A DNA stretch of 64,000 nucleotides from Centroscyllium fabricii (taxonomy: Eukaryota), in assembly GCA_051313645.2 (NCBI GenBank), contig JBNRSN020000029.1, positions 22,506,001 to 22,570,000 on the forward strand, read 5' to 3'. The position numbers and the translations under genes were made by a program. Shown here piece after piece: positions 13,327-59,672 of the stretch; position 1 is the stretch's first letter, and every line of letters begins with the position of its first letter. A model generated the notes under the pieces. It had not been told where the DNA came from and did no database searches. It saw only the letters and a program-made list of their open reading frames with translations.

Positions 13327-13511
13327 ATGTAAGCAAAACGGCTTCCGTCATTTTTCAGGAGAGGGACTGTCAGAAATGGTCGGTTTGAAGCCAGATTCAG
13401 AATTATCCCATATTTTTAAACGACCGGGGCAGGATCAATGAACAGGTCCTCTGCGAACTGGGTGCACAACAGCCCAGGGCAACCTAAGGCAATTTCGGTC
13501 AGGCTCTCGGT

Positions 13512-13603
13512 GGCTCGTCGGTCTCGGGGTATGATTCTCACTTAGGAAATTGCGTAATTTCAATACATGGGAGAGGTCCCAGGTTCAAATCGCGGGCGAG
13601 CCC
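13512..13603 (+). pseudogene. tRNA-Pro(AGG) with 20-nt intron, decayed
   Basis: GGCTCGTCGGTCTCGGGGTATGATTCTCACTTAGGA[AATTGCGTAATTTCAATACA]TGGGAGAGGTCCCAGGTTCAAATCGCGGGCGAGCCC. Confidence 0.85.
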
Positions 13604-13993
13604 CTCACCAACTCGGCCATCACATCCGCAATCGCTTTTCTTTAAAAAATACTGACACACTGATTGATCCGGGACTGTGCACACCCCCGGTTTAAACAGA
13701 CAGAGTGAACCTTGACTGACCCCGCCCATTATAAACAGGCCTGATTATCATTGCTTTTGAATTCGATGGAAATCGAAATCGGCGGTTTCTATAACGGTCG
13801 GCAGATTTCGATGCGCGATTTAATCCAGTGGGCCAATTTGAAGATTTGCTCCACTGTCATTTTCACCTTATCTCCGTCATTTCATTCCAGCCTAATGAAT
13901 TGAGTTTAGGTGTCAGGTGAGGGACTGAAATACATGGTCGGTTTGAAGTCAGATTCAGAATAGGCAAGATAAAGATCAGGTGACTTATTTAAT

Positions 13994-14050
13994 CGACCGC
14001 GGCAGGACTCGAAACTGCAAATTTCTGATAACTGAACGAGTCACGCCGAA
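13994..14050 (-). pseudogene. tRNA-Arg(TCG) 3' half plus intron; 5' half deleted
   Basis: CGACCGCGGCAGGACTCGAAACTGCAAATTTCTGATAACTGAACGAGTCACGCCGAA followed directly by upstream flank sequence. Confidence 0.8.
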
Positions 14051-14224
14051 TGACGCCGATGTTCTTCTTATGCGGAGAATTGCGAGCAGATTCAGAGAAA
14101 CTGCTCATGTGAGAAATGAATTTCAGAAAAGACAAACATACTTCAAATCAATGAACAGGTCCTCTGCGAACTGGGTTCGCAACAGCGCAGGACAACCTAA
14201 TGCATTTTCGGGACTGCTGTCGGC

Positions 14225-14313
14225 GGGTCGTTGGTCTAGTGGAATGAATCTCGATTTGGGCGCTACGATGCGTAAAATGCCACAGGTCCCGGGTTCAAAT
14301 CGCGGACGAACCC
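14225..14313 (+). pseudogene. tRNA-Pro(TGG) with 17-nt intron, decayed
   Basis: ..CTCGATTTGGG[CGCTACGATGCGTAAAA]TGCCACAGGTCCCGGGTTCAAATCGCGGACGAACCC; several stem mismatches. Confidence 0.85.
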
Positions 14314-14483
14314 TGCCATATTTAGTTAAACCTCACCAACTCGGCCACAACATGTGGGATCGATTTTCATTAAAAAAAATACTGACACATTGAATGATCC
14401 GGGACTGTGAGGATACCTGTGTGATTTTGAGGAAATTGCGATTACAAATCATGTTTTACCTAGCATTAAGTTCAAATTAATAA

Positions 14484-14554
14484 AGACGAGAATGAGAATC
14501 GAACCATGCGTCTAGGGAAGAATGGATCAGCATTTCATGGTCTTCCACCTCGTC
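14484..14554 (-). pseudogene. tRNA-Ser(GCT) relic with D-arm deletion (paralog 51231-51301)
   Basis: GACGAG ends retained; same module position as the other Ser copies. Confidence 0.75.
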
Positions 14555-14800
14555 TGGCAGCTGCACCGCAGTCAATCATTCCATATCCTGTAATTTGCAT
14601 CTAAGCAGAAACAACTCTGAACTAATGTCCCATTCACCACTTGTCCTGACTTGAACTCAGGTCTACAATGTTTAAAATGTATAATTAGCTTCATGTAAGC
14701 AAAAGGCCTTCCGTTAATTTCAGGTGATTGACTGTCAGAAATTGTCGGTTTGAAGCCAGATTCGGAACAGGGAAGAAAAAGATTATCCCTTAGATTTAAA

Positions 14801-14881
14801 GAACCGAGGCAGGACTCGAACCTGCAATCTTCTGATAACAGAAAGATTTACACCGAAGTCAGACGCCTAGGCCACGCGGCC
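14801..14881 (-). pseudogene. tRNA-Arg(TCG) with 16-nt intron and 8-nt D-loop deletion
   Basis: Minus: GGCCGCGTGGCCTAGGCGTCTGACTTCGG[TGTAAATCTTTCTGTT]ATCAGAAGATTGCAGGTTCGAGTCCTGCC. Confidence 0.85.
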
Positions 14882-15061
14882 GCTGCGACCCGCAACGTTG
14901 TCCTTATGCGGAGAATTGCGAGCAGATTCAGGGAAACTGCTCATATAAACAAGTGAATTTCAGGAAATGTAATCATATTTAAAATCAATGTACAGGATCT
15001 CTGCGAACTGGGTTCACAACAGCGCAGGGCAACCTAATGCAATGTTGGTCAGGCTCTCGGC

Positions 15062-15150
15062 GGCTCGTTGGTCCAGGGGAATGATTCTCGCTTTAGGCGC
15101 TGCGCCACGTAAAATGCGAGAGGTCCCGGGTCCAATTGGCGGACGAGCCC
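15062..15150 (+). pseudogene. tRNA-Pro body with TAG anticodon and 17-nt intron; B box damaged
   Basis: GGCTCGTTGGTCCAGGGGAATGATTCTCGCTTTAGG[CGCTGCGCCACGTAAAA]TGCGAGAGGTCCCGGGTCCAATTGGCGGACGAGCCC. Confidence 0.85.
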
Positions 15151-15481
15151 CGCCATATTTAGTTAAACCTCACCAACTCGGCCATCACGTGTGTGACCGT
15201 TTTTAATATATATATACTGACACATTGAATGATCCGGGATTGTGAGCATACCCGGTTTAAACAGACACATAGTGAACCTTGACGGACCACGACCCCGCCA
15301 TTATAGACAGGCCTGATTATCATTGATTATGAAATCGATGGAAATATAAATCGGCGGTTTCTCTAACGGGCGGCAGATTACGAGGCGCGATTTAATTTAG
15401 TGGGACAATTTGAAGTTTTGCTCCACAATCATTTTCACTTTATCTCCGTCATTTCATTCCAGCCAACTGAACTGAGTTTAG

Positions 15482-15770
15482 GTGTCAGACGTGGCTCAGC
15501 GGGAGCAACCGCAAGTCACACTCCAGAGACCTGAGCACATAATCCTGGCTGACACTCCATTGCAGTGCTGAGGGAGAACTGAAATGTCAGCGGTGCCGTC
15601 TTTCTGGTATGACGGTCAACCGAGGATTCAGATCCCATGAGAATATGCCGAAAAGATTGAGGATTTCCCTCATTATTTATCTCCCAACCAATGAAACTAA
15701 AAGGGAAAATCTCGTGATTAAGGTCGATACATATTTTAGAAGTTACATTTCCTACGAAACGCAAATGTTA
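15482..15770 (+). mobile_element. Internally deleted DeuSINE in the 1.5-kb module (copies start at ~16986, 18364, 20874, 52127, 54819)
   Basis: GTGGCTCAG head, CACTCCAGAGACCTGAGCACATAATCCTGGCTGACACTCC, GGTGCCGTCTTTC..AACCGAGG. Confidence 0.8.
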
Positions 15771-15964
15771 TGGTTCTGCTCCGTAATCATTTGGCTTTGA
15801 CCCCGCCAGTCTTTCGTTGCGTGCCTGCGATTCCCGATTGCTGCTCCACCTTCATTCGGGATCGCCAGTGGTCTGCTATTATTTTAACAGGATGTGAAGT
15901 GAGCAGGGGTGGTTTTGACGTACTTGCGATTACAAATCCTGTTTTACGCAGCATTGAGTGCAAA

Positions 15965-16047
15965 GGAGGAGATTGAGAATCGAGCCATGCGTGCAAAGAA
16001 GAATGGATTAGCATTTAATGGTCTATAAACCTCTCGGCGACCTCCTC
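15965..16047 (-). pseudogene. tRNA-Ser(GCT) relic
   Basis: AATGGATTAGCA core and AACCTCTCGGCGACCTC; module position. Confidence 0.7.
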
Positions 16048-16294
16048 TGGAAGCGACACGGCAGTCAATCATTCCATGTCCTGTAATTTGCATCTAAGCA
16101 GAAACAACTCTGAACTAATGTCCCCTTCACTACTTGTCCTGCCCGTGCACTCAGGTCTACAATGTTTAAAATATACAATCAGCTCCATGTAAGCGAAAGC
16201 CCTTCCGTTAATTTCAGGTGAGGGACTGTCAGAAATGGGCGGTTTGAAGCCAGATTCAGAATAGGGAAGAAAAAGATTATCCCTTAGATTTAAA

Positions 16295-16383
16295 CGACCG
16301 CGGCCGGACTCGAGCCTGCAATCTTCTGAGAACTGAGCGATTCACACCGAAGTCAGACGCCTTATCCATTAGACCACGCGGCC
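16295..16383 (-). pseudogene. tRNA-Arg(TCG) with 16-nt intron, full length, T-arm substitutions
   Basis: Minus: GGCCGCGTGGTCTAATGGATAAGGCGTCTGACTTCGG[TGTGAATCGCTCAGTT]CTCAGAAGATTGCAGGCTCGAGTCCGGCCGCGGTCG; T54>C; T5 terminator ~20 nt downstream. Confidence 0.88.
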
Positions 16384-16563
16384 GCTACTGACTTCGCTGT
16401 TCTTCTTATGCGGATAATTGCTAACAGATTCAGGGAAACTGGTTATATATAGAACTGAATTTCATGAAATATAAACATATTTAAAATCAATGAACATGTC
16501 CTCTGCGAACTGGATTCACAACAGCGCAGGGCAGCCTGATGCAATTTCGATGAGGCTCTCGGC

Positions 16564-16652
16564 AGTTCGTTGGTCTCGGGGAATGATTCTCGCGTTGGGC
16601 GCAACGCTGCGTAAAATGCGAGAGGTCTCGGGTTCAAATCGCGGACGAGCCC
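16564..16652 (+). pseudogene. tRNA-Pro(TGG) with 17-nt intron, decayed
   Basis: AGTTCGTTGGTCTCGGGGAATGATTCTCGCGTTGGG[CGCAACGCTGCGTAAAA]TGCGAGAGGTCTCGGGTTCAAATCGCGGACGAGCCC. Confidence 0.85.
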
Positions 16653-17477
16653 AGCCATATTTAGTTAAACCTCACAAACTCGGCCGTCACGTTTGGGATC
16701 GTTTTTCTTCAAAAAATATCCAGACACATTGAATGATCCGGGACTGTGAGCATATCCAGTTTAAACAGACACATATTGATCGTTGACTGGCCACGACCCC
16801 GCCATTACAGACAGGCCTGGTTATCATTGCTTATGAAATCGATGGAAATATAAATCGGCGATTTCGATAACGGGCGGCAGATTACTTTGCGCGATTTAAT
16901 TTAGTGGGCCAATTTGAAATTTTGCTCCACCATCATTTTCACTTTATCTCCTTCATTTCATTCCAGCCGACTGAACTGAGTTTACGTGTCAGCCGTAGCT
17001 CAGCGGGAGCAACCGCATGTCACACTCCAGAAACCTGAGCACATAATCCTGGCTGACACTCCATTGCAGTGCTGAGGGAGAACTGAAATGTCCGCGGTGC
17101 CGTCTTTCTGGTATGACGGTCAAAAGAGGCCTTAGATCCCATGAGAATCTGCCGAAAAGATTGAGGATTTCTCCCCCATTTTTTATCTCCCAACCAATGA
17201 AACTAAAACAGAAAATCTCGTCATTAAGGTCGATAAATATTTTAGAAATTACATTTCCTCCGAAACGGAAAAGTTATGTTTCTGCACCCTAATTATTAGG
17301 CGTTGACCCCGCCAGTCTTTCGATGCGTGCCTGCGATTCGCGATTGCTGCTCCATCTTCATTCGGGATCGCCAGTGGTCTGCTATTATTTTAACAGGATG
17401 TGAATGGAGCAGGGGTGGTTTTAAAGAACTTCCGATTACAAATCCTGTTTTACGGAGCATTGAGTGCAAAGTAATAA

Positions 17478-17559
17478 GGACGAGAATGAGATTCGAACCA
17501 TGAGTGCAGATAAAAATGGATTATTATTCCATCGCCTTAAACCTCTCGGCCACATCGTC
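17478..17559 (-). pseudogene. tRNA-Ser(GCT)-derived relic, anticodon loop mutated
   Basis: GACGAGAATGAGATTCGAACC..CCATCGCCTTAAACCTCTCGGCCACATCGTC. Confidence 0.78.
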
Positions 17560-17797
17560 TGGAAGCGACACGGTAGTCAATAATTCCATGTCCTGTAATT
17601 TGCATCTAAGCAAAAACAATGCTGAACTAGTGTTCCCTTCACCACTTGTCCTGCCCGTGCACTCAGGTCTACAATGTGCAATCAACTTCATGTAAGCGAA
17701 AGGCCTTCCGTTAATTTCAGGTGAGGTGCTGTCAGAAATTGTCGGTTTGAAGCCAGACTCAGAATAGGGAAGAACAAGATTACCCCATATATTTAAA

Positions 17798-17886
17798 CGA
17801 CCGCGGCAAGACTCGAACTTGCAATTTTCTGATAACTGAGCGATTTACACCGAAGTCAGACGCCTTATCCATTAGACCACGCGGCC
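17798..17886 (-). tRNA. tRNA-Arg(TCG) with 16-nt intron, structurally intact
   Basis: Minus: GGCCGCGTGGTCTAATGGATAAGGCGTCTGACTTCGG[TGTAAATCGCTCAGTT]ATCAGAAAATTGCAAGTTCGAGTCTTGCCGCGGTCG; all four stems pair. Confidence 0.9.
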
Positions 17887-18052
17887 GCTGCTAATGCCGA
17901 CGTTCGGCTTATGCGGGGAATTGCGAGCACATTCAGGGAAACTGCTCAAATTAACAAGTGAATAAAGGATATATAAACATATTTAAAATCAATGAACAGG
18001 TGGGTTCAGAAAGCGCAGGGCAACCTAATGCAATTTCGGCCAAGCTTTCGGC

Positions 18053-18121
18053 GGCTCGTTGGTCTGGGGTAATGATTCTCCCTTCGGGCGCTACGCTACG
18101 TAAAATGCGAGATGTCCCGGG
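18053..18121 (+). pseudogene. tRNA-Pro(CGG) with 17-nt intron, 3' end deleted
   Basis: ..CTCCCTTCGGG[CGCTACGCTACGTAAAA]TGCGAGATGTCCCGGG fused directly to downstream flank ACTGTGAGC. Confidence 0.85.
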
Positions 18122-18654
18122 ACTGTGAGCATACCCGGTTTAACCAGACACATAATGATCCTTGACGGACCACGACCCCGCCATTATAGACAGCCCTGAT
18201 TATCATTGCTTATGAACTCGATGGAAATATAAATCGGCGGTTTCGATAACGGGCGGCAGATTACAATGCGCCATTTATTCCAGTGGGCCAATTTGAAGTT
18301 TTGCTCCACTATAATTTTCACTTATCTCCGTCATTTCATTGCAGCCGACTGAACTGAGTTTCGGTGTCAGACGTTGCTCAGCGGGAGCAACCGCAAGTCA
18401 CACGCCAGAGACCTGAGCACATAATCCTGGCTGACAATCCATTGCAGTACTGATGGAGAACTGAAATGTCAGCGGTGCCGCCTTTCTGGTACAAGGTTCA
18501 ACCGAGGCCTCAGATCCCAGGAAAATATGCCGAAATATTGAGGATTTCTCCCCATTATTTATCTCGCAACCAATGAAACTAAAACAGGAAATCTCCTGAT
18601 TAAGGTCGATAAATATTTTTGAAATTACATTTCCTCTGAAACGGAAATGTTATA

Positions 18655-19690
18655 GAATCAAAGCAACATGGAAGATAGGAGCAGGACTTGGCCATTCGGC
18701 CCTTCGAGCCTGCTCGACATTCAATTAGATCACAACTCATCTTCAGATTCCTTGCCCTGTCCCTGCCTTCTCCACATATACCTTGATCCCTTCAGCCTGA
18801 AGAAATATATCCAACGCTAACTTGAATATATTCAATGAACAGGCCTCCACCGCCCTCTGTGGCAGAGAGTTCCACAGGTTCACCACTCTCTGGCTGAAGA
18901 GATTCCCCCTCATCTCAGTCCTAAATGACTTTCCCCTTATCCTTAGACTGTGGCCCCTGGTTCTGGACTCCCCTTTCATCGGAAACATCCTTCCTGCCTC
19001 CAGAGTGTCCCGGCCTGAAAGAATTGTATAGGTTTCGGCGAGATCCCCACTCAATGGACTGACCTACAGTGATTATAAGCCCAATCTAATCAATCTCTCC
19101 CCATCCGTCATTCCTGCCATCCCAGGTATCAGCCTGGTTAATTTCCTGTACTAGCTCCGTGGCAAGAACGTCCTTCCTCAGATGAGGTTTCAAAAACTTC
19201 ACTCAATACTCGAGGTGTGGTCTCACCAAGGTCCTGCAGAGCTGCAGCTGGACATCATTGTTCCTATATTCGAAACCTATTGCTACGAAGGCCAACATAC
19301 TATTTGGCTTCTTAACCGCCAGTTGCACCTGCAGTGACAGGTGCACAATCACAACCAGGTCTCTTTGCACTTCCCCATCTCCCAATCTATTGCCATTCAA
19401 ATAATAATTTGCCCTCCTGTCTTTGCCACAAAGTGGATACCCTCACATTTATTCACATGTTGCTATTTGCCATGTATCTGCCCAGTCCCCCAACCTGTCC
19501 AAATCGCATTGGAGTTTCTCCTGCCACCCAGGTTTGTGTAGTCTGCAAATTTGGAGATATTTCATCCAATTCCCGCGTCCAGATGTCTTGTGAAAAGCTG
19601 GGGTCCAAGGAACGATCCTTCCGTCACCGCCTACCATTCGGAATACCACCCTCTGTTTTCTAACTGCCAATCAGTTCTCTGTACAAGTTT
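18655..19690 (-). mobile_element. CR1 LINE 3' fragment (paralog ~52418-53480)
   Basis: Frames GDLAETYTIL..RTRGHSLRIRG..FSQRVVNLWNSLP and LVRPHLEY. Confidence 0.88.
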
Positions 19691-19936
19691 ATAGCTTGCT
19701 CCCTTTCGTTTCGGCTTCCTAATCATTTGGCCTTGTCCCCGCTAGTCTTTCGTTGAGTGCCTGCGATTCGCGATTGCTGCTCCACCTTCAATTAATCGAA
19801 TTGAAGATCGCCAGGGGTCAGCTAATATTTGAACAAGACATGAAGCGTGCAGGAACACAGCGCTGAATCACAAGTGTGATTTTGACGAAATTGCGATTAC
19901 AAATACTTTTACGCAGCATTCAGTGCAATGTAATAA

Positions 19937-20010
19937 CGACGAGAATGGGAGTCGAACCCAGAGCACAACCGATTAGCAGTCCATCGCCTTAACCTCTCAG
20001 CCACCTCGAC
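19937..20010 (-). pseudogene. tRNA-Ser(GCT) with 8-nt variable-arm deletion (paralog 53749-53822)
   Basis: CGACGAGAATGGGAGTCGAACCCAGAGCACAACCGATTAGCAGTCCATCGCCTTAACCTCTCAGCCACCTCGAC. Confidence 0.82.
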
Positions 20011-20221
20011 TGCCGTGTATACTGCATTCAATCATTCCATTTCCTGTTATTTGCATCTGAGCAGAAACAACTCGGAACGAATGTCCCCTTCACCGCTTGT
20101 GATGCCCGCTTGTCATGTAAGCAAAAGGCGTTCCGCTGTTTTCAGTTGAGGGAGTATCAGAAATGATCGTTTGAAGCCATATTCAGAATAGGGAAGAAAA
20201 AGATTAGCCCATTTATTAAAA

Positions 20222-20290
20222 CGACCGATGCAGGGCTCGAACCTGCAATCTGTACGAATCACGCCCAATTCGGACGCCTTACCCATGGCC
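20222..20290 (-). pseudogene. tRNA-Arg(TCG) relic with deletions (paralog 54034-54102)
   Basis: CGACCGATGCAGGGCTCGAACCTGCAATC..GACGCCTTACCCATGGCC in module position. Confidence 0.72.
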
Positions 20291-20452
20291 GCTGCTAACT
20301 CCGACGTTCTTCTTACTGGACCAATTGCGAGCAGATTCAGCGAAACTGCTCTGATAAGAAGTGAATTTGAGAAATATAAATATATTTCAAAGGAATCATA
20401 CGGGTCCTCAACGCGCAGGGCAACGTAATGCAATTTCGGGCAAAATCTCGGC

Positions 20453-20541
20453 GCTTCGTTCGTGTAGGGGAATGATTTTCGCTCAGGGAATATTGCTAGG
20501 TAAAATACGACAAACCCCGGATTCCAATCGCGGACGAGCTC
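20453..20541 (+). pseudogene. tRNA-Pro(AGG) with 17-nt intron, heavily decayed (paralog 54266-54354)
   Basis: ..TTCGCTCAGGG[AATATTGCTAGGTAAAA]TACGAC..; 89 nt like the other copies. Confidence 0.78.
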
Positions 20542-21334
20542 CGGCATATTTAGTTAAACCTCTCTAACTCGGCATATCACACCTGGAATCGTTTTTCTTC
20601 AAAAAAATACTGACACACTGAATGATCCGGGACTGTGAGCACACCCGGTTTAAACAGACACACAGTGAACCTTGACTGACCACGACCCCGCCATTATACA
20701 CAGGCCTGATTATCATTGCTTATGAAATTGATGGAAAAATAAATCGGCGGTTTCTATAACGGGCGGCAGATTGCGAAGCGCGATTTAATCTAATGTGCCA
20801 ATTTGAAGTTTTTAAACACTATCATTTTCACATATTTCCGTCATTTCACTCCAGCCGAACGAACTGAGTTTCGGTGTCATACGTGGCTCAGCGGGAGTAA
20901 CCGCAAGTCACATTCCAGAGACCTGAGCGCATAATCCTGGCTGACACTCCATTGCAGTGCTGATGGAGAACGGAAATGTCAGCGGTGCCGTCTTTCTGGT
21001 GTGGGGGTCAACCATGTCACTTTCGGATGCTCAATCCTCTGCCTCGCTGTGGCTTATTGAGTCCTGTAGGAATCAAACAGTAAAGTTCCTGAGCAAGTGA
21101 CTTCAGATAAAGACATTTAGCAAACAATCGGATAATCAACGGACTGCGGAACATTCAATGGATCTTCAAACTCACAGGTGGACCTGCAAAACTTATTACA
21201 ATCAGTGATCGTTATGGGCTTCTCTGGACAACAGGAGGTGAACAACACAATTTTATGAAGACATGGACGGCGGATGAACCCCATACAGAAGACACAAACC
21301 CAGCCTCATATCCATAGGATTGATGTTACTTTTT

Positions 21335-22720
21335 CGAAAGCGAAATAATGCGGATGCTAGAAATCTGAAATACAAAATGAAATTGCTGGACACACTCAGC
21401 AGGTCAAGCAGCATTAGTGGAGAGAGAGACAGAGGTAACGTTGTTGGTCGATAAAATTTCATCAGGACTGGGAAAAGTTAAAGATGTGAGCAGGGAAAGG
21501 GGGCGGGAAGGAAATAACAAAATAGAAGGCCTGTGACAGGGTGGAAGGCAGGAGTGATCACATGACAAAAGGGAAAGGGAATGAGAATGAGCCATGTAAG
21601 CAACAAATATGCGCCGACAAGAAATGTAAAAGGGAATTGGAGAATCATTACCAATAGTGACTGTCCGAAAAAAATGGGAGCAGTGCTTAGAATCTGAAAA
21701 TACTGAACTCAGTGTTGAGTGTGGAAGGCTAACAAGAGCCTATTCGAAAGATGAGATGCTGTTGCTCGAGCTCCGATTGAGTGTGGGAGGCCGAGAACAG
21801 AGAGGTCAGAGTGAGAGTGGGGAGCAGAATTCAGATGACCAGCGACCGGAAGCTTGGGGACTGAAGTGATGTGTTCGGCAAAGCGATCACCCAATCTGTG
21901 TGTGGTCTCCCCAACCTAGAGGAGTCGGCAGCGATTAGAGTTTATTAAATTGCAAGAAGTACAAGTAATTCGAGGTTTCACCTGGAAGATGTGTTTGGGA
22001 TCCTGGACGTTGGGAAGGGAGGAGGTAAAATGGCCGGCGTTGCATCTCCTGCGCTTGGACAGGCAGGTGTAGTGGGAAGAGGAAGGGATGGTCGGGTGAT
22101 AGATGAGTGGGGCAGAGTGTCGCAGAGGGAGCGGTCTCCTCCGAATGCTGAAAGGGGACGGGAGGGGAAGATGTGTTTGGTGGCGGGATCACGCTTGAGG
22201 TGGTGGAAAAGGCAGAGGATAATCCGTTGAATGTCGAAGCTGGTGGGGTGAAAGGTGAGGACAAGGGGAACCCTGTCTTGCTTCTGGGAGGGTGGGGAAA
22301 GGGTGAGAACCGAAGTGAGCGAAATAGAACGGGCAGGGTCGAGGGTCCTGTCCGCCATGTTGGAGGAAATTACTCGGTTGAGGGAAAAATAAAACATATC
22401 GGAAGTTGGCATCATCAGAAGGGATGTGATGGAGATGGAGAAACTGAGAAGATGGAATAAAGTAGTTACAGGAATCAAGGTGGGAGGAAGTGTCGTCACG
22501 TTAGCTGTGGGAGCAGCTGGGCTTATTTGGTTCATGTGAGTGGATTCAAAGGAGAAATAGTTCAATGTATGTTAGAAACAAGTTCAGCCAGGCGGAGGAG
22601 GGTGGTCGTGAATATGGACTGTGTTGGCCTCCGTTCCCTCTACACCTCAGCCGCCATGCTGGAGGTGTAGAGGGAATGGAAGCCCATAGTGAAAAGCAGA
22701 CGGTGAGGAACAGGAAACTG
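21335..22720 (-). mobile_element. Decayed Penelope-like element, GIY-YIG region (paralog ~55300-56600)
   Basis: Frames DRVPLVLTFHPTS, ITCTSCNLIN..C..YVG and GDRFAEH; terminal CTGATGAA..GAAACG motif (clearer at ~55398-55428). Confidence 0.85.
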
Positions 22721-22844
22721 GAAAGTAACTGATGTTAAATCCTACCACAGCAGCACTCAAATCAATGATATTATCAATAGATTGATATTGTGGTGTGAAA
22801 GGAATTTGTTGAATTGTGTGCAACTGCGCGTCGCTACTGACATC

Positions 22845-22927
22845 ACCAACATGGCCGAGTGGTTGAAGGATTTGAGTTAAAGTTCGAGTCTACGTCAATT
22901 CGTGCAGGGTCGAGCACTACTCTGGTG
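22845..22927 (+). pseudogene. Old class-II (Leu-like) tRNA relic (paralog 56713-56795)
   Basis: ACCAACATGGCCGAGTGGTT A box, degenerate B box GGGTCGAGC and TCTGGT end at tRNA-Leu spacing. Confidence 0.5.
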
Positions 22928-23992
22928 GAGGTGATAACCCATCCGAGAATTGCAACTATTGGGAAAGGAATTGTCATAGTTATATTTCATATTTCCTGGC
23001 AGCGGTCCTACATTCACAGTAGAAGCTCCGCCGACTGGCAGGAAATGGGAACAGGATTGAGCCATTCAGCCCTTCGAGCCTTTTCCGCCATTCAGTGAGA
23101 TCATGTCTGACCTGGATCTTAAATTCATCCACCTGCTTTGACTCCAAATCCATTCCTACCCTTACCTACACATATTTATCGAGCACAGATTTAAATTGTT
23201 GATTTAAATGGCAAAAGAACTAAATGTGAGATGATGAGGTTTTTTTATTCCTCAGAGGTTAGTTATGATCTGGATTGCATTGCCTGAACTGTTGTTGGAA
23301 GCAGGTCCGGCAGCAGATCCATCACTGTAGTAACTTTCAGCAGGGAATTGGATAACTATTTGATGACGAACAATGTGCAGGGCTGTGGGGAAAGTGCGTC
23401 GTTCACTGCTTCTATGATGCGACAATCCTCTACCTCAGTGAGCTTGTGTTTTCACCGGTAAACCTGAGGTCACGGCTTTAATTCCTGTCTGAGCAGGCAG
23501 GGACTTTCTCACCTTTAGTGTGGTGTTTCTCTTCTTCTCGCTCTATGATTCGCTTTATTACTCTCTGTTGCTGTCTTTCTTTCCGTGTGTCAGTGTCTCT
23601 GTAGGTTTCATTCATTCTCATTCTTTTTCTGTACGCTTTTCTAATTGGGTCTCTGTTTATCCGTCCAACTATTTATTTCTCTCAGTCACTCTCTCCATCG
23701 CTCCCCACATCATTTTACTCTGCTTCTCATTAATTAACCATTTAATAAGCGTTGGTTCAGTTTGAGCTTGCTGACCTTGGGTGTTTGATATTCTTAATTC
23801 AAAAATATGTGCGTTATTGACGGGAGTGTTACATGTTCTGTCGGCTAAAAGCCGAGGGGTTACCTGTTGGTTACGAACGGTCAGCTAAAGGCGTTACCTG
23901 CCCAGCTGCTGTGATCTTCAGTTCAGTTTTTCACAGGTCGCAGTTTTAGAAAATGTCTTTATCCTCTCACATTTTCAGATTATGCTGATGTC

Positions 23993-25600
23993 AGAACATA
24001 AGAACATAAGAAATAGGAGCAGGAGTCGACTAATCGGCCCCTCGAGCCTGCTTCACCATTCAATAAGATAATGGCTGATCTGATTCTAACCACCAATCTA
24101 CTATCACAGAACCATCTCCTCAATCTAAAAGAATCAGACACACGAAATAGGAGCAGGATCAGGCTACACGGTCCCGGGACCCGCTCCACTACCCACAGGG
24201 CCATGACCGATCTGAACCTATACTCATGTCCAAATTCCTGCCCGCTCACCGTAACCCTTAATCCCTTTTAATTCTAGGAAGCTGTCTATTTCTGTTTTAA
24301 ATTTATGTAATGATGTAGCTTCAATAGCTTTTTGGGCAGCATGTTGAATGGACCTACTACCCTCTGAGTGAAGAAGTTTCTCCTCATCTCAGTTTTGAAA
24401 GAGCAGCCCCTTATTCTAAGTTTATGCCCCCTAGTTCTAGTTTCACCCTTCATCGGGAACACCCTCCCTGCTTCCACCCGATCCAACCCTTTCACAATAT
24501 TATATGTTTCAATAAGATCGCCCCTCATTCATCTGAACTCCAATGATTAGAGTCCCAATCCACTCAACCTATCCTCATATGTCCAACCCCTCATCCCTGG
24601 CATTAACCGAGTGAACCTTCTTTGTACCGACTCGAGAGCGAGTATGTCCTTTCTTAAGTATGGACACCAAAACTGTACGCAGTATTCCTGGGGTGGTCTC
24701 ACCAATACCATGTACAAGTGAAGCAACACCTCCGTATTTTTATATTCTATTTCCTTAGCAATGAAAGACAACATTCCACTGGCCTTCTTAATCACTTGAT
24801 GTACCTGCATACTAATATTTTGTGTTTCGTGCACCAGGACCCCCAGATCGCTTTGCACATAGTACTTTCCAGTTTCTTGCCATTAAGATAATAACTGGCT
24901 CTCCGGTTTTTCCTGCCAAAGTGCATAACCTCACACTTTCTAGTATTGTATTCCATCTGCCGAATCTCTGCACACTCACTTAGCATGTCCATGTCCCCCT
25001 GCAGGTTTTTTATGCCCTCCTCCCTCACTACTTTGCCTCCCATCTCAGTATCATCTGCAAACTCTGATATGTTACAATCGGTCCCCCCCTCCAAATCGTT
25101 AATATAGTTTGTAAAGAGTTGGGGACCCAGCACTGACCCTTGCAGAACACCAATAGTTACCCATTGCCAGTCTGAGAATGAAACATTTATCCCAACTCTC
25201 TGCCTTCTATTAGATAGCCAATCCTCTATCTCAGGCAGAATATTACATCCAATTCCGTGATTTTTTATTTTTAGCAATAATCGTTTCTGTGGCACCTTGT
25301 CAAATGCCTTTTGAAAGTCTAAATACACTACGTCCACTGGTTCCCATTTAGCCACCCTATATGTTACTTCCTCAAAGAACTCTAACAAATTTGTCAAACA
25401 AGACATCCCCTTCATAAAACAATGCTGGCTTTGTCCTATTAAATTATGTTCATCCAAATGTCTTGTTACTGTCTCCTTAATAATGGACTCCAAAATTTTA
25501 CCCATGACAGATGTTAGGCTAACCGGTCTATAGTTTCCAGCCTTATGTCTACTGACCTTTCTAAATAAGTGTGTTACATTAGAAGTTTTCCAGTCTGCCT
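23993..25600 (-). mobile_element. CR1 LINE RT fragment with frameshifts (paralog ~57858-59445)
   Basis: ORF 24792-25505: YLDFQKAFDKVP, QGSVLGPQLF, FADDT; (TTCTTATG)n tail. Confidence 0.93.
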
Positions 25601-25690
25601 GGATTGTAGTTTACGCTGCGCTGAAAACTAAATTTCGAATCTGCAAGGGATTTGTTAAATTTTCAGGCACTGCACGGCTGTGCTTGTGTC

Positions 25691-25773
25691 ACCAGGATGG
25701 CCGAGTGGTTAAGGCGTTGGACTTAAGATCCAATGGACATGTGTCCGCGTGCGATCGACCCCCACTCCTGGTA
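25691..25773 (+). tRNA. tRNA-Leu(TAA), near-intact but T-arm/B box altered (possible pseudogene)
   Basis: ACCAGGATGGCCGAGTGGTTAAGGCGTTGGACTTAAGATCCAATGGACATGTGTCCGCGTGCGATCGACCCCCACTCCTGGTA. Confidence 0.85.
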
Positions 25774-28700
25774 GATGCTCCGGCAACGGGGGTTGAAAAT
25801 AAGAACTAAAACTAGTTTTGGTATGAAACCGTTTAAAAGTATTTTGATGTCTGCAACGGTTGATGCCTCATTTATAATTCACCTTTTAAGACAGCGTTCC
25901 TTTATTGACAACTGGTGTTCTAAACACAGGAACAGGAGGAGGCCATTCAGACCCTTGAGCCTGTTCGCCATTCACTTAATTAATGTCTGAGCTGTGTCTT
26001 AACTCCGTCCATCTGCTTTGGCTCCACATCATTTGAACGCACGTCTATCAAAAACCTACCGATCTCTGATGTATATTATTAATTGAGGTGACATATGCTG
26101 CTATTTTTGGGAGAGAGTCCCACACTGCTACCAGTCTTCGCGTGAAAAAAATGCTTCTTCACTTATTTGCCGAATGGCCTGCCTCTGATTTTATGATTAT
26201 GTCCCTTTGTCCTAGACTCCACCACCAACGGCGAAAAAAGATTTATCTGTATCTACCTTATCAATTCCTTTCAAAATCTTAAAACGCTCAATCAAATCCC
26301 CACAACCTTCTATATTCCAGGAGGTAGAATCCCAGTTTATGTTATCTCTCCTCATAGTTTAACCATTGGAGCGCTGGAAACGTTCTGGTGAATGTGCGCT
26401 TCACTCCCTCGAAGGTGATTCTATCCTTTCTAACGGGCAGTGTCCAGAGCTGTACAAGAATTCCAGATGTGGTCTTACCAGGTCTCAGTGTAGTTGTAGA
26501 ATAACGTCCTCTCCTTGAAATTGCAGCCCTCGTTATTAAGCCTAACATGCTATGAGGTCTTTTGCTTATTTTCGTTGTCTGTGTACATGGTCCCGAAATC
26601 ACTTTGGAGTTCCACTGTTCCGAGCTGTGCTCCATATAATTAATACTCGGATCTACCTTTTTGGTCTATAATGAATGACGACATAATTACCTGCGTTGCC
26701 ATCCATCAGCCAATGTTCCATCCATTCACTTAATCTATCAATATATCTTTGTAATTATATGCTGCTGTTTAAACGACTTACCGTACAACCAGCCTTTGCA
26801 TCACCGGCAAACTTGGATATATGGCTCTCTATTGTGTTTTCTAAGTCATTAATGACTATAGAAGGAACCATTTATTTAATATCAATATTTATAAACGGGC
26901 CATGCTGGGACAATCTGACAGGGTCTGTGGGGAGAGGAAGTTAGAGGTAAGGTTTCAGCTCGATGGACATCTGTTCCTCCAAATAAACATCACGCAAGTG
27001 TTAGTGTTTAAATAGTAAAAAAGAGAACTCACACTCCTATAGCACCTTTCACGACCTTGGGGCGTCCCAATTGCTCACCAATGCTCATGTTGAGTCACGA
27101 CAGTACCACTAGGTTCCAGCCATCATTAGAGCCTTGATCGTAGCATGGCCAAAGGAGCTGAATTCTAAAGTCGATGTGAGAGTGATTGCTCTTAGAATCA
27201 AAACAGCATTAGACCACGTGTTGCATCAAGGATACCGAGTAAAATTGACATCAATGGAATCTGTGGGGTGACGGGTGGGGAAATTCCACTGCTGGAGACA
27301 CACCTAACAAAAGGAAAGATGATTGTGTTTGTTGGAGGCCAATCATGTCATCACCTGGACATCACTGCAGGAATTAATCTTCACCTGCTTCATCAATGAC
27401 CTTCCCTCTATAATAAGGCCAGAAGTGGGGATGTTCAGCAATGATTGCAAAGTGTTCATTTCCATTCTCATCTCATCAGATAATGAAGCAATCCTGGCCT
27501 GCATGCAGCAAGACCTGGACAACATTCAGGCTTGGGCTGAAACGTGGGACGTAACAATCGCGCTACACAAGTGCCAAAGTTTCTTCCACAGCACTTCCAA
27601 CAACCGCGAACTGTAACTCCTAGAAAGACAAGAGCAGTTAGCGCATGGGAAGACCGCCACCTGCAAGTTCCCCTCCAAGGCCTACACAATCCGGACATGG
27701 AAATATATCGTTGTTCCTTCATTGTCGCCGGGTCAAAATCAGGGAATTCCTTCCCGAAGAACACTGTGGGTAACTTCGCCTCACGGACTGCAGTGGTTCA
27801 AAAAGACGCTCATTACCTCCTTCTCAAGGGCAGTTGGAGATGTGCAATAAATGCTGGTATTTCCAGCGACACCTCATCAAGTGAATGGCGGATTTTTAAA
27901 ACATTGCTTTACAGAAAATGATGTTTCCTTGAAGCGTAATCACTGCTTGTAATGCAGGAAAAAGCGGCAGCCAAATTCTACACAGCAAGATCCCACTGGT
28001 GATTTTGGCTGTCCGACACAGAAATTCCCAGGACTCCTTGGCGAACTTTCTACCTCTTAGAATCATAGATATCTTAGAAATTTGCCGCACAGAATGAGGG
28101 CCATCGGCTCTGGTCGAAGGAGCTATCCAGCCTAATCACACTTCCCAACTATTGGTCCGTAGCCTTGCAGTCTACGGCACATCAAGAGCATATCCAAGTA
28201 CCTTTCAAATATGGTGAGTGTTTCTGCCTCTACCACCATTTTAGGTAGTGAGTTACAGACCCCACCACCCTTTGGGTGAAAACCAGTTCTCCTCAACTCC
28301 CCTCTAATCCTTCCACCAATCACATTTTATATCTCTGCCTCCTTGTTATTGACCTCTCTGATAACTGAAATAGGTGCTTCCTATCCACTCTCGCTCGGCC
28401 GCTCATAATTTTAGACTCCTCAGTTAAGTCTCCCCTCCGCCTCCGCTGCTCCAAAGAAAATAACTCCAGCCTATCCAATCTTTCCTCAGAGTCAAACCTC
28501 TCTAGTTCTGGCAACAACCAAAGGACAAGAGTGGACTCAGATTGAATGTAATTGGCAAATGAACCAGAGGGGAGATGAGGATATGTTTTATTACCTTGCG
28601 ATTTGTTATAATCTGTAATGCTCTGCCTGAAATGGTGGTGGAATCAGATTCAATAGTAACTTTCAAAAGGGGAATTGGATAAATACTTGAATTGGAAAAT

Positions 28701-28960
28701 TTTGCTGGGGTATGGGGAACGAGCTGGGAATAATTGGATTCCTCTTTCAAGAGCACGACGGAGCAATTCGCCTCCTTCTGTGATGTATGATTCTATAATT
28801 CTTTGAAAGTTTTTATGAAAGGATTTATGGAAATTGGGCTGTTATCTTCCGGCTCCACTACCTCTGTTTAATTCTGTGCACAAGCGACTGTTCTGTTTGA
28901 ACCTCATTGAAATGATTCGAGGTTCGGTCCCAATGAAGCTCAAGTTAATCGCTGATGTAT

Positions 28961-29028
28961 GGCGTGGTGGCCAAGTGGTAAGGCGTCGGTCGCGTAAACC
29001 GAAGATCATGGGTTCGACCCGCATCTAC
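28961..29028 (+). pseudogene. tRNA-Thr(CGT) interrupted in the acceptor stem; last bases GCCT at 31819-31822
   Basis: Matches 3469-3536; also T33>G and a T-stem mismatch. Confidence 0.92.
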
Positions 29029-35979: not shown

Positions 35980-37110
35980 TTGCTTGGCTCTGTGTAGGAG
36001 CTGTCTGTGTCACTGCAGGAGCTGCCCGGGTCTGTGAAGGCATATCTTGGTCTGTGCAGGATCTGCCTGGGTCTGTATAGGAATGTGTCTGTCTCAGCAG
36101 GAGTTGTCTGTTATTGTGCATGAATATCTGGGTCTGCGTTAGAGTTGTCTGGGTCTGTGTAGGAATTTCTGTGTCTGTGTAGGAATGTCTGGGTCCTGCA
36201 AGGAACATTCTGTGCCTCTCTTGGAACAATCCATTCCCGTGTAGGGTGTGTCCATGTCAGTGTAGGAGCTCATATATAGGTGCAGACTGAGTCATTGTAG
36301 GAATTTTCTGGGTCTATGTAGGAACGAATGGATCGGTGAAGGAGCTCCTGGGTCTGTATATGTGCTCTTTCCTTCAGGGTAGGAGCTCCCTAGCTCTGTG
36401 TAGGACAGTCTCTGCCTGCGGTGGTGCTCCCTGTGTCAGGGTAGGAGCTCCCTGATCTGTGTAGTTACTTTTGTGCCTGTTATGGTATTCCCTCTGTCAG
36501 GGAAGGAGCTCTCCGGATCTGTGTAGTTACGTCTGTGTCTGTTATGGTATTCCCTGTGTCGGGGCAGGAGCTGTCTGGGTCTGTGTAGTTAAGTCTATCC
36601 CTGTGATGGTGCTCCCTGGAGTAGGGCAAGTGCAGATTATGGGTGCGTAGCAAATTCTGTGCCAGTAATGGTGCTCCCTGAATCAGGGCAAGTGCTTACT
36701 GTGCCTGAGTAGGAATATCTGTGCCTGTGGTTGTGCTCCCTGTGTCAGGGTAGGAGCTCCTTCGGTCTGTGTAGTTAAGTCTCTGCTTGTGTCAGCTTAG
36801 GAGCTTACTGGGTCTGTGTACTTAAGTCTGTGACTGTGATGGTGCTCCCTGGAGCAGGGTAATTGCTGTCTGGGTCTGTTCAGGAATGACTGTGCCAGTC
36901 ATGGTGCGCCCTGTCTCGATATAGGAGCTCCTTGTGTCTGTGTAGGAAAGCCTCTGCATGTGATGGTGCTCCCTGTAGCAGTATAGGAGCTCTCTGCGTC
37001 TGTGTCAGAATGTCAATGCCTGTGATGGTGCTTCCTCTGTCAACATAGGGGCTGACTATGTCTGTGTAGGAAAGTATGTGCCAGTGCTGGATCTCCCTGT
37101 GCCGATAGGT
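35980..37110. repeat. Degenerate ~17-bp minisatellite with ~51-bp higher-order period
   Basis: Recurring TCTGTGTAGGA, GGTAGGAGCTCC and GTGATGGTGCTCCCTG blocks. Confidence 0.85.
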
Positions 37111-50040: not shown

Positions 50041-50122
50041 GGACGGAGATGGATTGCGAGCCCACGCGTGCTGAGCACAATGGATTAGCAGTCCATCGCT
50101 TTAACCTCTCGGCCACCTCGTC
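50041..50122 (-). pseudogene. tRNA-Ser(GCT), damaged T-loop (paralog of 12733)
   Basis: 82 nt; GCT anticodon arm intact; T-loop CTCGCAA. Confidence 0.88.
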
Positions 50123-50346
50123 CGAAGGATGCAGTGTTCGTTGTATCCAGGCAGAAACACCTTGAACGAATGTCCCCTTCACCACGTGTCATGCCCCGTA
50201 CTCAAATCTAGAATGTTTAAAACGTACAACCAGCTTCATGTAATCAAAAGGGCTTCCGTCATTTTTCAGGTGAGGGACTGTCAGAAATGGTCGGTTTGAA
50301 GCCAGATTCAGAATAGGCAAGATAAAGATCAGCCGACTTATTTAAT

Positions 50347-50434
50347 CGACCGCGGCAGGACTCGCCCTGCAATCTTCTGATAACTGAACGATTCACGCCG
50401 AAGGCAAACGCCTTACCCATTAGGCCACGCTGCC
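50347..50434 (-). pseudogene. tRNA-Arg(TCG) with 16-nt intron, decayed
   Basis: ..CCTTCGG[CGTGAATCGTTCAGTT]ATCAGAAGATTGCAGGGCGAGTCC; T-loop lesion. Confidence 0.85.
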
Positions 50435-50613
50435 GCTGCAAACGCCGATGTTCTTCTTATGCGGAGAATTGCGGGCAGATTCAGATAAACTGCTCATGTG
50501 AGAAGTGAATTTCAGAAAAGATAAACATTCTTCAAATCAATGAACATGTCCTTTGCGAACTGGGTTCGCAACCGCGCAGGGCAACCTAATGCAATATCGG
50601 TCAGTGTCTCGGC

Positions 50614-50702
50614 GGCTCGTTGGTCTAATGGAATGATTATCGCTTTAGGCGCTGCGCCACGTAAAATGCGAGAGGTCCCGGGTCCAATTCGCGGACGAGC
50701 CC
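50614..50702 (+). pseudogene. tRNA-Pro body with TAG anticodon and 17-nt intron
   Basis: ..ATCGCTTTAGG[CGCTGCGCCACGTAAAA]TGCGAGAGGTCCCGGGTCCAATTCGCGGACGAGCCC. Confidence 0.85.
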
Positions 50703-51547
50703 CGCCACATTTAGTTAAACCTCAGCAACTCGGCCATCACGTCTGTGATCGTTTAATTTTTTTTTACTGACACATTGAATGATCCGGGACTGTGAGCATC
50801 TCCGGGTTAAAGAGACACATAGTGATCCTTGACGGACCACGAGCCCGCCATTATAGACAGGCCTGATTATCATTGCTTATGAAATCGATGGAAATATAAG
50901 TCGGCGGTTTTTATAATGGGCGGCAGATTACGAGGCGCGATTCAATTTAGTGGGCTAATTTGAAGTTTTGCTCCACAACCATTTTCACTTTATCTCCGTC
51001 ATTTCATTCCAGCCGACCGAAGGATGCAGTGTGAGTTGTATCCAGGCAGAAACACCTTGAACTAATGTCCCCTTCACCACGTGTCCTGCCCGTGCACTCA
51101 GGTCTACAATGTTTAAAATGTACAATCAGCTTCATGTAAGCGAAAGCCCTTCTGTTAATTTCAGGTGAGGTGCTGTCGGATATGGTCGGTTTGAATCATG
51201 TTTTACGCAGCATTAAGTTCAAATTAATAAAGACGAGAATGAGATTCGAACCATGCGTCTAGGGAAGAATGGATCAGCATTCCATGGTCTTCCACCTCGT
51301 CTGGCAGCTACACGGCAGTCAATCATTCCATATCCTGTAATTTGCATCTAAGCAGAAACAGCTCTGAACTAATGTCCCATTCACCACTTGTCCTGACTTG
51401 AACTCAGGTCTACAATGTTTTAAAAGTATAATTAGCTTCATGTAAGCAAAAGGCCTTCCGTTAATTTCAGGTGAGTGACTGTCAGAAATTGTCGGTTTGA
51501 AGCCAGATTCGGAATAGGGAAGAACAAGATTATTCCATATATTTAAA

Positions 51548-51636
51548 CGACCGCGACAGGACTCGAACCTGCAATCTTCTGATAACTGAACAACTTACAC
51601 CGAAGTCAAACGCAATATCCATTAGACCACGCGGCC
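51548..51636 (-). pseudogene. tRNA-Arg(TCG) with 16-nt intron, D-stem disrupted
   Basis: Minus: GGCCGCGTGGTCTAATGGATATTGCGTTTGACTTCGG[TGTAAGTTGTTCAGTT]ATCAGAAGATTGCAGGTTCGAGTCCTGTCGCGGTCG. Confidence 0.88.
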
Positions 51637-51815: not shown

Positions 51816-51884
51816 GGCTCGTTGGTCTGGGGATATGATTCTCGCTTCGGGCGCTACGCTACGTAAAATGCGAGATGTCCCGGG
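51816..51884 (+). pseudogene. tRNA-Pro(CGG) with 17-nt intron, 3' end deleted
   Basis: CTCGCTTCGGG[CGCTACGCTACGTAAAA]TGCGAG; same deletion junction as 18053. Confidence 0.87.
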
Positions 51885-54577
51885 ACTGTGAGCATACCCG
51901 GTTTAACCAGACACATAGTGATCCTTGACGGACCACGACCCCGCCATTAGAGACAGCCCTGATTATCATTGCTTATGAGCTCGATGGAAATATAAATCGG
52001 CGGTTTCTTTAACGGGCGGCAGATTACATTGCGCCATTTATTCTAGTAGGCCAATTTGAAGTTTTGCTCCACTATTATTTTCACTTATCTCCGTCATTTC
52101 ATTCCAGCCGACCGAACTGAGCATCAGTGTCAGACGCAGCTCAGCGGGAGCAACCGCAACCCACACTCCAGAGACCTTGGCACATAATCCTGGCTGACAC
52201 TCCATTGCAGTGCTGACGGAGAACTGAAATGTCAGCGGTGCCGTCTATTTGGTACGACGTTCAACCGAGGCCTCAGATCCGAGGAAAATATGACGAACAA
52301 TTGACGATTTCTCCACATTATTTATCTCGCAACCAATGAAACTAAAACAGAAAATCTCGTGATTAAGGTCGATAAATATTTTAGAAGTTACATTTCCTCT
52401 GAAACGGAAATGTTATAGAATCAAAGCAACATGGAAGATAGGAGCAGGAATAGGCCATTCAGCCCTTCGAGCTTGCTCCGCCATTCAATTAGATCACGAC
52501 TCATCATCAGATTCAGTGCCCTGTCCCAGCCTCCTCCCCATATCCCTTGATCCCTTCAGCCTGAAGAAATATATCCAACACCTTCTTGAATATAATCAAT
52601 GAACCGGCCTCCACCGCCCTCTGTGGCAGAGAGTTCCACAGGTTCACCACTCTCTGGCTGAAGAGATTCACCCTCATCTCAGTCCTAACTGACTGTCCCC
52701 TTATCCTTAGACTATGGCCCCTGGAACTGGACTCCCCTTTCATGGAAACATCCTTCCTGCCTCCAGAGTGTCCCGGCCTGAAATAATTTTATAGGTTTCG
52801 GCGTGAACCCCACTCAATCGACTGACCTACAGTGATTATAAGCCCCATACACTCAATCTCTCCCCATCCGTCATTCCTGCCATCCCAGGTATCAGCCTGG
52901 TTATTCTGCTGTACTACCTCCGTGGCAAGAACGTCTTTCCTCAGATTAGGTGTCAAAAACTTCACACAATACACGAGGTGTGGTCTCACCAAGGTCCTGC
53001 AGAGCTGCAGCTAGACTTCCTTGTTCTTATATTCGAACCCTCTTTCTACGAAGGCCAACATACCATTTGGCTTCTTAACCGCCTGTTGCAGCTGCAGTGA
53101 CAGGTGCACAAGCACACCCAGGTCACTTTGCACTTCCCCATCTCCCAATCTTTTGCCATTCAAATAATAATCTGCCCTCCTGTCTTTGCCACAAAGTGGA
53201 TACCCTCACATTTATTCACATGTTGTTATTTGCCATGTATCTGCCCAATCCCCCAACCTGTCCAAATCGCATTGGAGTTTCTCGACATGCTGCTCGGAGC
53301 ATACCCTCCCACCCAGGTTTGTGTCGTCTGCAAATTTGGAGATATTTCATCCAATTCCCTCGTTCAGATCATTAATATGTCTTGTGAAAAGCTGGGGTCC
53401 AAGGAACGATCCTTCCGGTACCCCATTAGTCAGCGCCTGCCACTCGGAATACCACCCTCTGTTTTCAATCTGCCAATCAGTTCTCTGTACATGTTTATAG
53501 CTTGCCCCCTTTCGTTTCTGCTTCCTAATCATTTGGCCTTGTCCCCGCTAGTCTTTCGTTGAGTGCCTGCGATTCGCGATTGCTGCTCCACCTTCAATTC
53601 ATAGAATTGAAGATCGCCAGAGATCTGCTAATATTTGAACAAGACATGAAGAGTGCAGGAACACAGCGCTGAATCACCAGTGTGATTTTGACGAATCCAA
53701 AATTGCGATGACAAATACTTTTGCGCAGCATTCAGTTCAATGTAATAACGACGAGAATGGTAGTCGAACCCATAGCTCAACCGATTAGCAGTCCATCGCA
53801 TTAATCTCTCAGCCACCTCGACTGCCGTGTATATTACATTCAATCATTCCATTTCCTGTTATTTGCATCTAAGCAAAAACAACTCGAACGAATGTCCCCA
53901 TCACCGCTTGTGATGCCCGCTTGTCATGTAAGCAAAAGTCGTTCCGCTGTTTTCAGTTGCGGGAGTATCAGAAATGGTCGGTTTGAAGCCAGATTCAGAA
54001 TAGGGAAGAAAAAGATTAGCCCATTTATTAAAACGACCGATGCAGTGCTCGATTCTGCAATCTGTACGAATCACGCCCAATTCGGACGCCTTACCCATGG
54101 CCGCTGCTAACACCGACTGTCTTCTTATTGGACCAATTGAGAGCAGGTTCAGCGAAACTGCTCCGATAAGAAGTGAATTTGAGAAATATAAATATATTTC
54201 AAAGGAATCATACGGGTCCTGAACGGCGCAGGGCAACCTAATGCAATTTCGGCCAAAATATCGGCGTTTCGTTAGTGTAGGGGAATGATTTTCGCTCAGG
54301 GAATATTGCTAGTTAAAATACGACAAGCCCCGGATTCCAATCCCGGACTAGCTCCGGCATATTTAGTTAAACCTCTCCAACTCGGCCATCACACCTGGAA
54401 TCGCTTTTCTTCAAAAAAAATACTGACACACTGAATGATCCGGGACTATGACCACACCCGGTTTAACCAGACTATTAGTGAACCTTGACTGACCACGACC
54501 CCGCCATTATGCACAGGTCTGATTATCATTGCTTATGAAATTGATGGAAAAATAAATCGGCGGTTTCTATAACGGGC

Positions 54578-59620: not shown

Positions 59621-59672
59621 GATGCTCTGGCAACGGGGGTTGAAAATAAAACCTAAAACTAATTTAGGTATG

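Follow-up and report, generated by a model that had tools for sequence, protein, structure and literature searches.

The stretch of DNA analysed here, referred to below as the window, comprises 64,000 nucleotides (nt) of the shark Centroscyllium fabricii (GenBank assembly GCA_051313645.2, contig JBNRSN020000029.1, positions 22,506,001 to 22,570,000 of the forward strand). It contains nine copies resembling genes for proline transfer RNA (tRNA-Pro), all on the plus strand, six of them within 13512–20541 and three outside this interval (starting at 50614, 51816 and 54266). All nine carry an insert directly 3' of position 37, that is, at the intron position 37/38. They are listed below, with changes counted against an intronless tRNA-Pro gene of the same genome (locus L033).

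13512..13603, plus strand: tRNA-Pro(AGG) pseudogene with a 20-nt type 3 intron at 13548-13567; 8 exon changes including G37A; terminator deleted
14225..14313, plus strand: tRNA-Pro(TGG) pseudogene with a 17-nt type 1 intron at 14261-14277; 9 exon changes
15062..15150, plus strand: tRNA-Pro pseudogene, anticodon mutated to TAG, with a type 1 intron at 15098-15114; 7 exon changes
16564..16652, plus strand: tRNA-Pro(TGG) pseudogene with a type 1 intron at 16600-16616; 7 exon changes including U32G
18053..18121, plus strand: tRNA-Pro(CGG) pseudogene, broken off in the T arm, with a type 1 intron at 18089-18105
20453..20541, plus strand: tRNA-Pro(AGG) pseudogene with a 17-nt type 2 intron at 20489-20505; 16 exon changes
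50614..50702, plus strand: tRNA-Pro pseudogene (TAG), near kin of the 15062 copy, with a type 1 intron at 50650-50666; 8 exon changes
51816..51884, plus strand: truncated tRNA-Pro(CGG), duplicate of 18053, with a type 1 intron at 51852-51868
54266..54354, plus strand: tRNA-Pro(AGG) pseudogene, duplicate of 20453, with a type 2 intron at 54302-54318; 15 exon changes

The type 1 intron (17 nt) occurs in six copies, with the anticodons TGG (14225, 16564), TAG (15062, 50614) and CGG (18053, 51816). Type 2 (17 nt) is found in two AGG copies (20453, 54266) and type 3 (20 nt) in the single AGG copy at 13512. The third-last intron base is A in all nine, opposite U32, which is missing at 16564 only. 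A preliminary description of the window had reported these inserts with their three types and lengths and the A opposite U32, and our results agree with it. It had also called every copy damaged. Indeed, seven copies have 7–16 of 71 exon positions changed, the other two end prematurely in the T arm, and none retains an intact mature tRNA body. Neither ARAGORN at default settings nor Rfam called any of the nine.

On sequence grounds, the nine copies are decayed members of an intron-bearing Pro family that extends over the whole genome, mostly in the form of tandem arrays. We searched this one genome, of 7.2 billion bases, with an exact pattern of 28 bases over the Pro anticodon arm, allowing a gap of 0–25 bases at 37/38. 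There were 141 matches to the pattern and none to its reversed control. An insert of 11–25 nt was present at 37/38 in 130 of the 141 matches, while 11 were intronless (5 TGG, 5 AGG and 1 CGG). These counts are lower bounds, because a gene with even one change in the core escapes the pattern, and the nine window copies are themselves not among the matches. Most Pro tRNA genes in this genome carry a short intron. Chance or misassembly was rejected as a source of the inserts, given the empty reversed control and the presence of identical introns on many contigs.

Many members of the family are intact. The preliminary description had asked whether intron-bearing Pro sequences might exist only as decayed copies, and had proposed that the window copies were once-functional genes. 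Disregarding position 34, the exons of 45 of the 130 intron-bearing genes are identical to the intronless gene, as are those of 9 of the 11 intronless matches. Intact relatives were thus found, and the idea of once-functional genes stands, although it was understated, since the family looks alive on other contigs. Arrays or clusters contain 93 of the Pro genes; 42 of them match the intronless gene exactly and 10 more are changed only at positions 16, 20, 59 or 73; of these 52 near-intact genes, 47 have TTTT within 15 nt downstream and 51 have A at the third-last intron base. The largest intact array lies on contig C480, where a looser search than the exact pattern found 68 Pro copies in 180 kilobases (kb). 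All 68 bear an intron, and 31 of them are perfect and 24 have one change compared to the intronless gene. The large C811 arrays hold damaged Pro copies only.

tRNA introns are generally 15–30 nt long (PMC10485636), and those of 124 of the 130 Pro genes measure 16–25 nt. The remaining six (C480:939528 and related genes; L065, L123, L127) have an 11-nt intron, under the usual range, and several of these have perfect exons; they offer a natural test of the minimum length accepted by TSEN. The anticodons of the intron-bearing genes (AGG, TGG and CGG) lie outside the usual animal set of Tyr-GUA, Ile-UAU, Leu-CAA and Arg-UCU.

We consider it probable that intact members of this large family are transcribed and spliced to a tRNA-Pro identical to the intronless product, and that the window copies are broken members of it. 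The mechanism would most likely be ordinary tRNA splicing. Polymerase III would start 3 nt upstream of the intact genes and stop ~10 nt downstream, as the dispersed copies discussed below suggest. Following known chemistry, TSEN would then recognise the tRNA body and the U32:A pair and cut both ends of the intron, and RTCB would ligate the exons. Judging from the dispersed copies, the machinery of long interspersed nuclear elements (LINEs) would copy unspliced precursors back into the genome, usually fused to a short interspersed nuclear element (SINE). The arrays would turn over by birth and death, with single copies mutating freely while spreading lineages keep a perfect tRNA body, a picture that the spectrum of variants suggests.

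The intron bases point in the same direction. Of 66 distinct Pro introns, 61 have A and 3 have G at the third-last base (-3), opposite U32, i.e., 64 of the 66 can pair. A is also found at -1 in 47, at -2 in 43 and at the fourth-last base in 56 of them. Intron bases -3 to -7 form 3.94 of 5 possible pairs with bases 32–36, compared to 2.34 ± 0.13 in 2000 shuffles, a comparison over 70 intron-anticodon types that are related and do not make 70 independent tests. Unconstrained folding of eight precursors gave no full cloverleaf, and the cloverleaf stems were fixed for the prediction of pairs. With the stems fixed, the mean probability of the anticodon-intron pair was 0.28 versus 0.02 after shuffling, and a helix of five pairs is predicted for the main AGG family with a probability of ~0.9. 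One exon with a tRNA-endonuclease domain is present in the genome; we take it to be TSEN34-like. For its 3' cut, human TSEN depends on pairing of base 32 with the third-last base of the intron (PMC8479045), and eukaryotic TSEN recognises the tRNA body and removes introns at 37/38 only (PMC10485636).

The covariation of the anticodon-intron pair noted in the preliminary description is borne out between isotypes, with U32:A in Pro and C32:G in Arg, but not within Pro, where U32 is fixed in every gene. Six Pro-TGG genes of the main lineage (L083, L089, L095, L098, L103, L113) have an intron G opposite U34, versus a T opposite A34 in AGG genes. This is possibly a compensation after an anticodon shift; the other TGG genes and the CGG genes are without it.

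Constraint on the exons was assessed from the variants of 99 copies in four young array stretches. The Pro exons have 57 rare and no common variants in 71 sites, and the flanks 83 rare and 21 common variants in 139 sites (Fisher p 5e-5, a value that overstates independence because array copies are related). In pairwise comparisons, Pro exons diverge at a third to half of the flank rate at 10–20% flank divergence, and introns diverge faster than flanks. The exon value depends on how many damaged copies are admitted (0.040 at a flank divergence of 0.122 for 100 copies; 0.059 at 0.117 for 104 copies). The Ser relic in the young arrays shows no deficit of exon variants, with 17 common variants in 82 sites.

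The exon identity might alternatively result from gene conversion, with the intronless genes as donors, and not from selection acting on their intron-bearing counterparts. Conversion has been described among tRNA genes of one isodecoder (PMC4090602). It should erase the introns too, yet not one of the 68 C480 copies is intronless; moreover, the family on contig C3 retains its own A16 and G59, and conversion leaves the base at -3 unexplained. We regard this as very improbable. Only slightly less improbable, in our view, is that the genes are spliced but kept for a role outside translation, with introns or precursors acting as small RNAs or the arrays serving as chromatin landmarks for polymerase III and TFIIIC. 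Such a role would fit the fast divergence of the introns with retention of their complementary 3' end, the reported non-coding functions of tRNA introns (PMC10275265), and a possible constraint on the altered Arg neighbour as well. Against it, the constraint covers the whole tRNA body, including the acceptor and anticodon stems and not just the promoter boxes (no common variant in 71 sites), and the intron sequences are not conserved across lineages.

Several observations weigh against splicing to a functional tRNA-Pro. Nine intact intronless Pro genes span all three anticodons, and the intron-bearing genes may therefore be dispensable. Complementarity shifted by one base still gives 3.47 of 5 pairs, and the intron ends are A-rich; with the stems fixed, the probability of the anticodon-intron pair exceeds 0.5 in just 20 of the 70 types, and is at most 0.24 in type 1 of the window and in the C3 family. 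None of the 11 intronless matches has array-type flanks or exon variants, so that no spliced copy was found in the genome. Besides the relatedness of the array copies mentioned above, the altered Arg-TCG neighbour is not a neutral control, as just 1 of its exon variants in 73 sites is common. Its rearranged downstream flank inflates the contrast, yet its exons are somewhat slower than its upstream flank. Finally, a search for target-site duplications at 55 loci found mostly 7–9-nt matches or none, and no convincing set.

These points leave room for a further explanation, in which the family is a tRNA-derived satellite that is transcribed but not usefully spliced, is amplified in tandem and looks intact owing to its youth, so that all working tRNA-Pro stems from the roughly nine intronless genes. 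The intronless genes for all three anticodons speak for this, as do the large C811 arrays, with damaged copies only. The same units, moreover, have amplified an altered Arg and a decayed Ser gene along with Pro, and the altered Arg exons are likewise uniform across copies: in the C480 arrays (L061-L078) all 68 Arg-TCG hits have at least 7 changes, including the T loop, and their exons are nearly uniform. This altered Arg-TCG is perhaps a dead passenger, perhaps a non-canonical RNA under constraint. However, the C480 exons equal those of the intronless gene although a divergence of 23–33% over long stretches separates the C480 unit from that of the window, a state that neutral drift would presumably rarely leave. 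In addition, three lineages without common flanks each hold genes within 0–2 tolerated changes, and the base at -3 follows position 32 in both Pro and Arg. A satellite therefore seems to us unlikely, if less so than the two explanations above, and we retain splicing to a functional tRNA-Pro as the preferred reading.

Traces of transcription may be preserved in dispersed copies. Intron-bearing Pro matches stand alone on many contigs (37 in total). Compared to their closest array parent, they agree by 59–84% at -1 to -3 and by 57–95% over a 10-nt trailer, beyond which agreement falls to ~25%. Directly 3' of the 37 copies lies a SINE head in 29, a SINE 3' piece in 2 and neither in 6. Only 39 SINE heads occur in 133 kb around 44 loci, those of the dispersed copies included (~10 others). 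In outline, the dispersed copies correspond to a primary transcript of polymerase III attached to a retroelement, which points to germline transcription of the intron-bearing genes. Insertion of SINEs behind genomic tRNA genes was considered as their origin and rejected, as the upstream likeness stops at -3. A search of sequencing runs with the C480 unit listed no RNA run.

The type 1 intron of the window is present in 13 dispersed copies, one of which (L006) has perfect exons, and the same type of junction between pre-tRNA and SINE is found in three intronless copies. Chimeras of a whole pre-tRNA and a full-length SINE are frequent (L005, L006, L010, L034, L053, L083, L088 and others), and might document more generally where polymerase III starts and stops in the genome. 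Changes at position 62 in the T stem are found in 14 of the 37 dispersed copies versus 4 of 95 young array copies, an excess that comes partly from the C811 branch (G62 in 23 of 27). Precursors with defects might persist in unspliced form and be copied more frequently. A SINE in the window presumably resembles shark SINEs. It was not assigned to a named family (PMC5499810).

The preliminary description had recognised three distinct introns in the window. This part did not stand. All nine copies have one upstream flank in common, and also one trailer where it is not deleted, and intermediate intron sequences connect types 1–3 within a single lineage. The window introns therefore likely descend from one intron, to judge from these sequence comparisons, and three independent introns in the window were rejected. 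Nor are the nine copies independent, because part of the array is duplicated 34–37 kb downstream (17441-20764 versus 51194-54577, 90% identity), and three of the nine are higher-order duplicates of others. The window array would be an older branch, in which most copies have U20A and C62G in common.

Lineages that look separate do occur elsewhere. Comparison of the flanks of 16 representatives distinguished a first lineage with the window, C480 and other C811 loci (72–89% identity between loci), a second with C3 and C811:25.18 Mb (72% upstream), and a third with C689 alone. No flank match linked the three Pro lineages to one another or to the seven intronless loci compared. The C689 genes form a small cluster at 39.70 Mb (L147, L148), with a 22-nt intron of their own, U20C and flanks unlike those of the arrays. 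From this one genome, the three lineages may represent either separate gains or a very old divergence. It is conceivable, though on balance doubtful, that sharks repeatedly acquired new introns, with a minimum of three gains in tRNA-Pro and two in tRNA-Arg(TCG), that every one of these introns came to form the anticodon-intron pair, and that intron-bearing genes now supply most proline tRNA.

Introns are not confined to Pro. Among 83 Arg-TCG matches, 80 have a 15–17-nt insert, one a 2-nt remnant, and two are intronless. The Arg-TCG introns fall into two families, with G as the third-last base, opposite C32, in all 14 distinct introns examined. This is the C32:G pairing given in the preliminary description, and its suggestion of a wider tRNA-intron repertoire is likewise supported, as Pro and Arg-TCG introns both lie beyond the usual animal set. 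A large array of near-intact intron-bearing Arg-TCG genes lies at 4.0–7.9 Mb of C922 (L141-L144), where 4 of 6 hits in 40 kb are one change from the intronless gene. Genome-wide patterns for Ser-GCT and Thr-CGT found no gene with an insert for either isotype, which rules out a general insert artefact of the arrays. For the remaining isotypes, no credible intron except that of canonical Arg-TCT was found in the fetched stretches, to which this comparison was confined, with no genome-wide survey made. tRNA-Sec was represented by 19 matches above the Rfam cut-off among 53 candidates scored, with a TCA anticodon in the 4 of 4 inspected, and forms clusters at C745 22.9–23.1 Mb and C1 310.7–310.8 Mb (L161-L164). 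Many tRNA-Sec copies have been found in sharks, and one in each non-shark examined (10.1101/2025.06.08.657570).

The Pro copies of the window belong to repeat units with Arg and Ser neighbours:

13434..20863, no strand assigned: decayed tandem array of Ser-Arg-Pro units, with long stretches 67–77% identical to the unit of the intact C480 array
12732..12815, minus strand: tRNA-Ser(GCT), the intronless third gene of the Ser-Arg-Pro unit; more copies at 17478-17559, 19937-20010 and 50040-50123
16294..16384, minus strand: tRNA-Arg(TCG) with a 16-nt intron, head to head with the Pro copy of its repeat unit
17797..17887, minus strand: tRNA-Arg(TCG) with a 16-nt intron and the C32:G pair; more copies at 51547-51637 and 50347-50435

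Elsewhere in the window, higher-order repeats of 3–6 kb with 92–94% identity (740-4630, 22645-29028 and 56513-62871) hold intronless Leu-TAA and Thr-CGT genes. The best-scoring tRNA of the window is located at 3469-3540. A 62-base tandem repeat is found at 36374-37100 and a related 21/41-base repeat at 35981-36195.

Yeast tRNA-Pro(UGG) has introns. Animal introns are described as prevalent in the genes for Tyr-GUA, Ile-UAU, Leu-CAA and Arg-UCU, with other tRNA genes essentially free of them (PMC12530127, PMC12168002); human has 28 intron-containing tRNA genes in four families (PMC10275265, PMC12168002, PMC8479045). The shark genes resemble the human tRNAs spliced by TSEN and RTCB in their short 37/38 intron, in the pyrimidine at position 32 opposite a third-last purine, in their normal tRNA body and in the variability of the intron within a family (PMC10275265, PMC10485636, PMC8479045). 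They differ in isotype, being Pro (AGG, TGG, CGG) and Arg-TCG (PMC12530127), and in that intron-bearing and intronless genes with identical exons coexist, the former in the majority.

Intron-bearing tRNA loci in sharks have partly been noted before. The Squalomix preprint (10.1101/2025.06.08.657570) reports abundant intron-containing tRNA loci in shark genomes. The words 'proline' and 'arginine' are absent from its main text, although its Fig. 3A and supplements may hold isotype counts, and its relevant passages give neither isotype names nor tests of function or origin. We found no report of vertebrate intron-bearing Pro or Arg-TCG genes in a literature search that did not extend to GtRNAdb and most subscription journals.

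Lineage-specific gains of tRNA introns are known in yeasts, by a mechanism that is speculative (PMC4090602). Like the gains in Lachancea Ala-UGC and Kluyveromyces Gly-UCC, which are read as modern (PMC4090602), the shark introns sit in isodecoders that are intronless in relatives. In contrast to the yeasts, the shark case concerns a vertebrate, three Pro anticodons, several lineages and tandem arrays, and the intronless genes are kept. The dispersed copies have a counterpart in U6/LINE chimeras and pre-tRNA retropseudogenes, where a polymerase III transcript ending in a U run is joined 5' of a retroelement; U6 chimeras have been described with L1, L2 and RTE, and pre-tRNA retropseudogenes noted in human (PMC4476161). 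In the shark, however, the captured RNA is an unspliced pre-tRNA, its partner is mostly a full-length SINE, and no convincing target-site duplications were found.

What is unusual for an animal is the isotypes concerned, the fact that intron-bearing genes form the majority, and the retroposed precursors. Intron-bearing and intronless Pro genes with an identical mature sequence offer a test, within the same cell, of the effect of an intron on modification, expression and fragments. How tRNA genes gain introns is unexplained, and the pairs with identical exons, the several lineages and the dozens of snapshots of unspliced precursors in the genome make gain, spread and loss testable across shark genomes. 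If repeated gain were true, sharks would provide a living vertebrate case of tRNA intron gain, with the intronless parents still in the genome.

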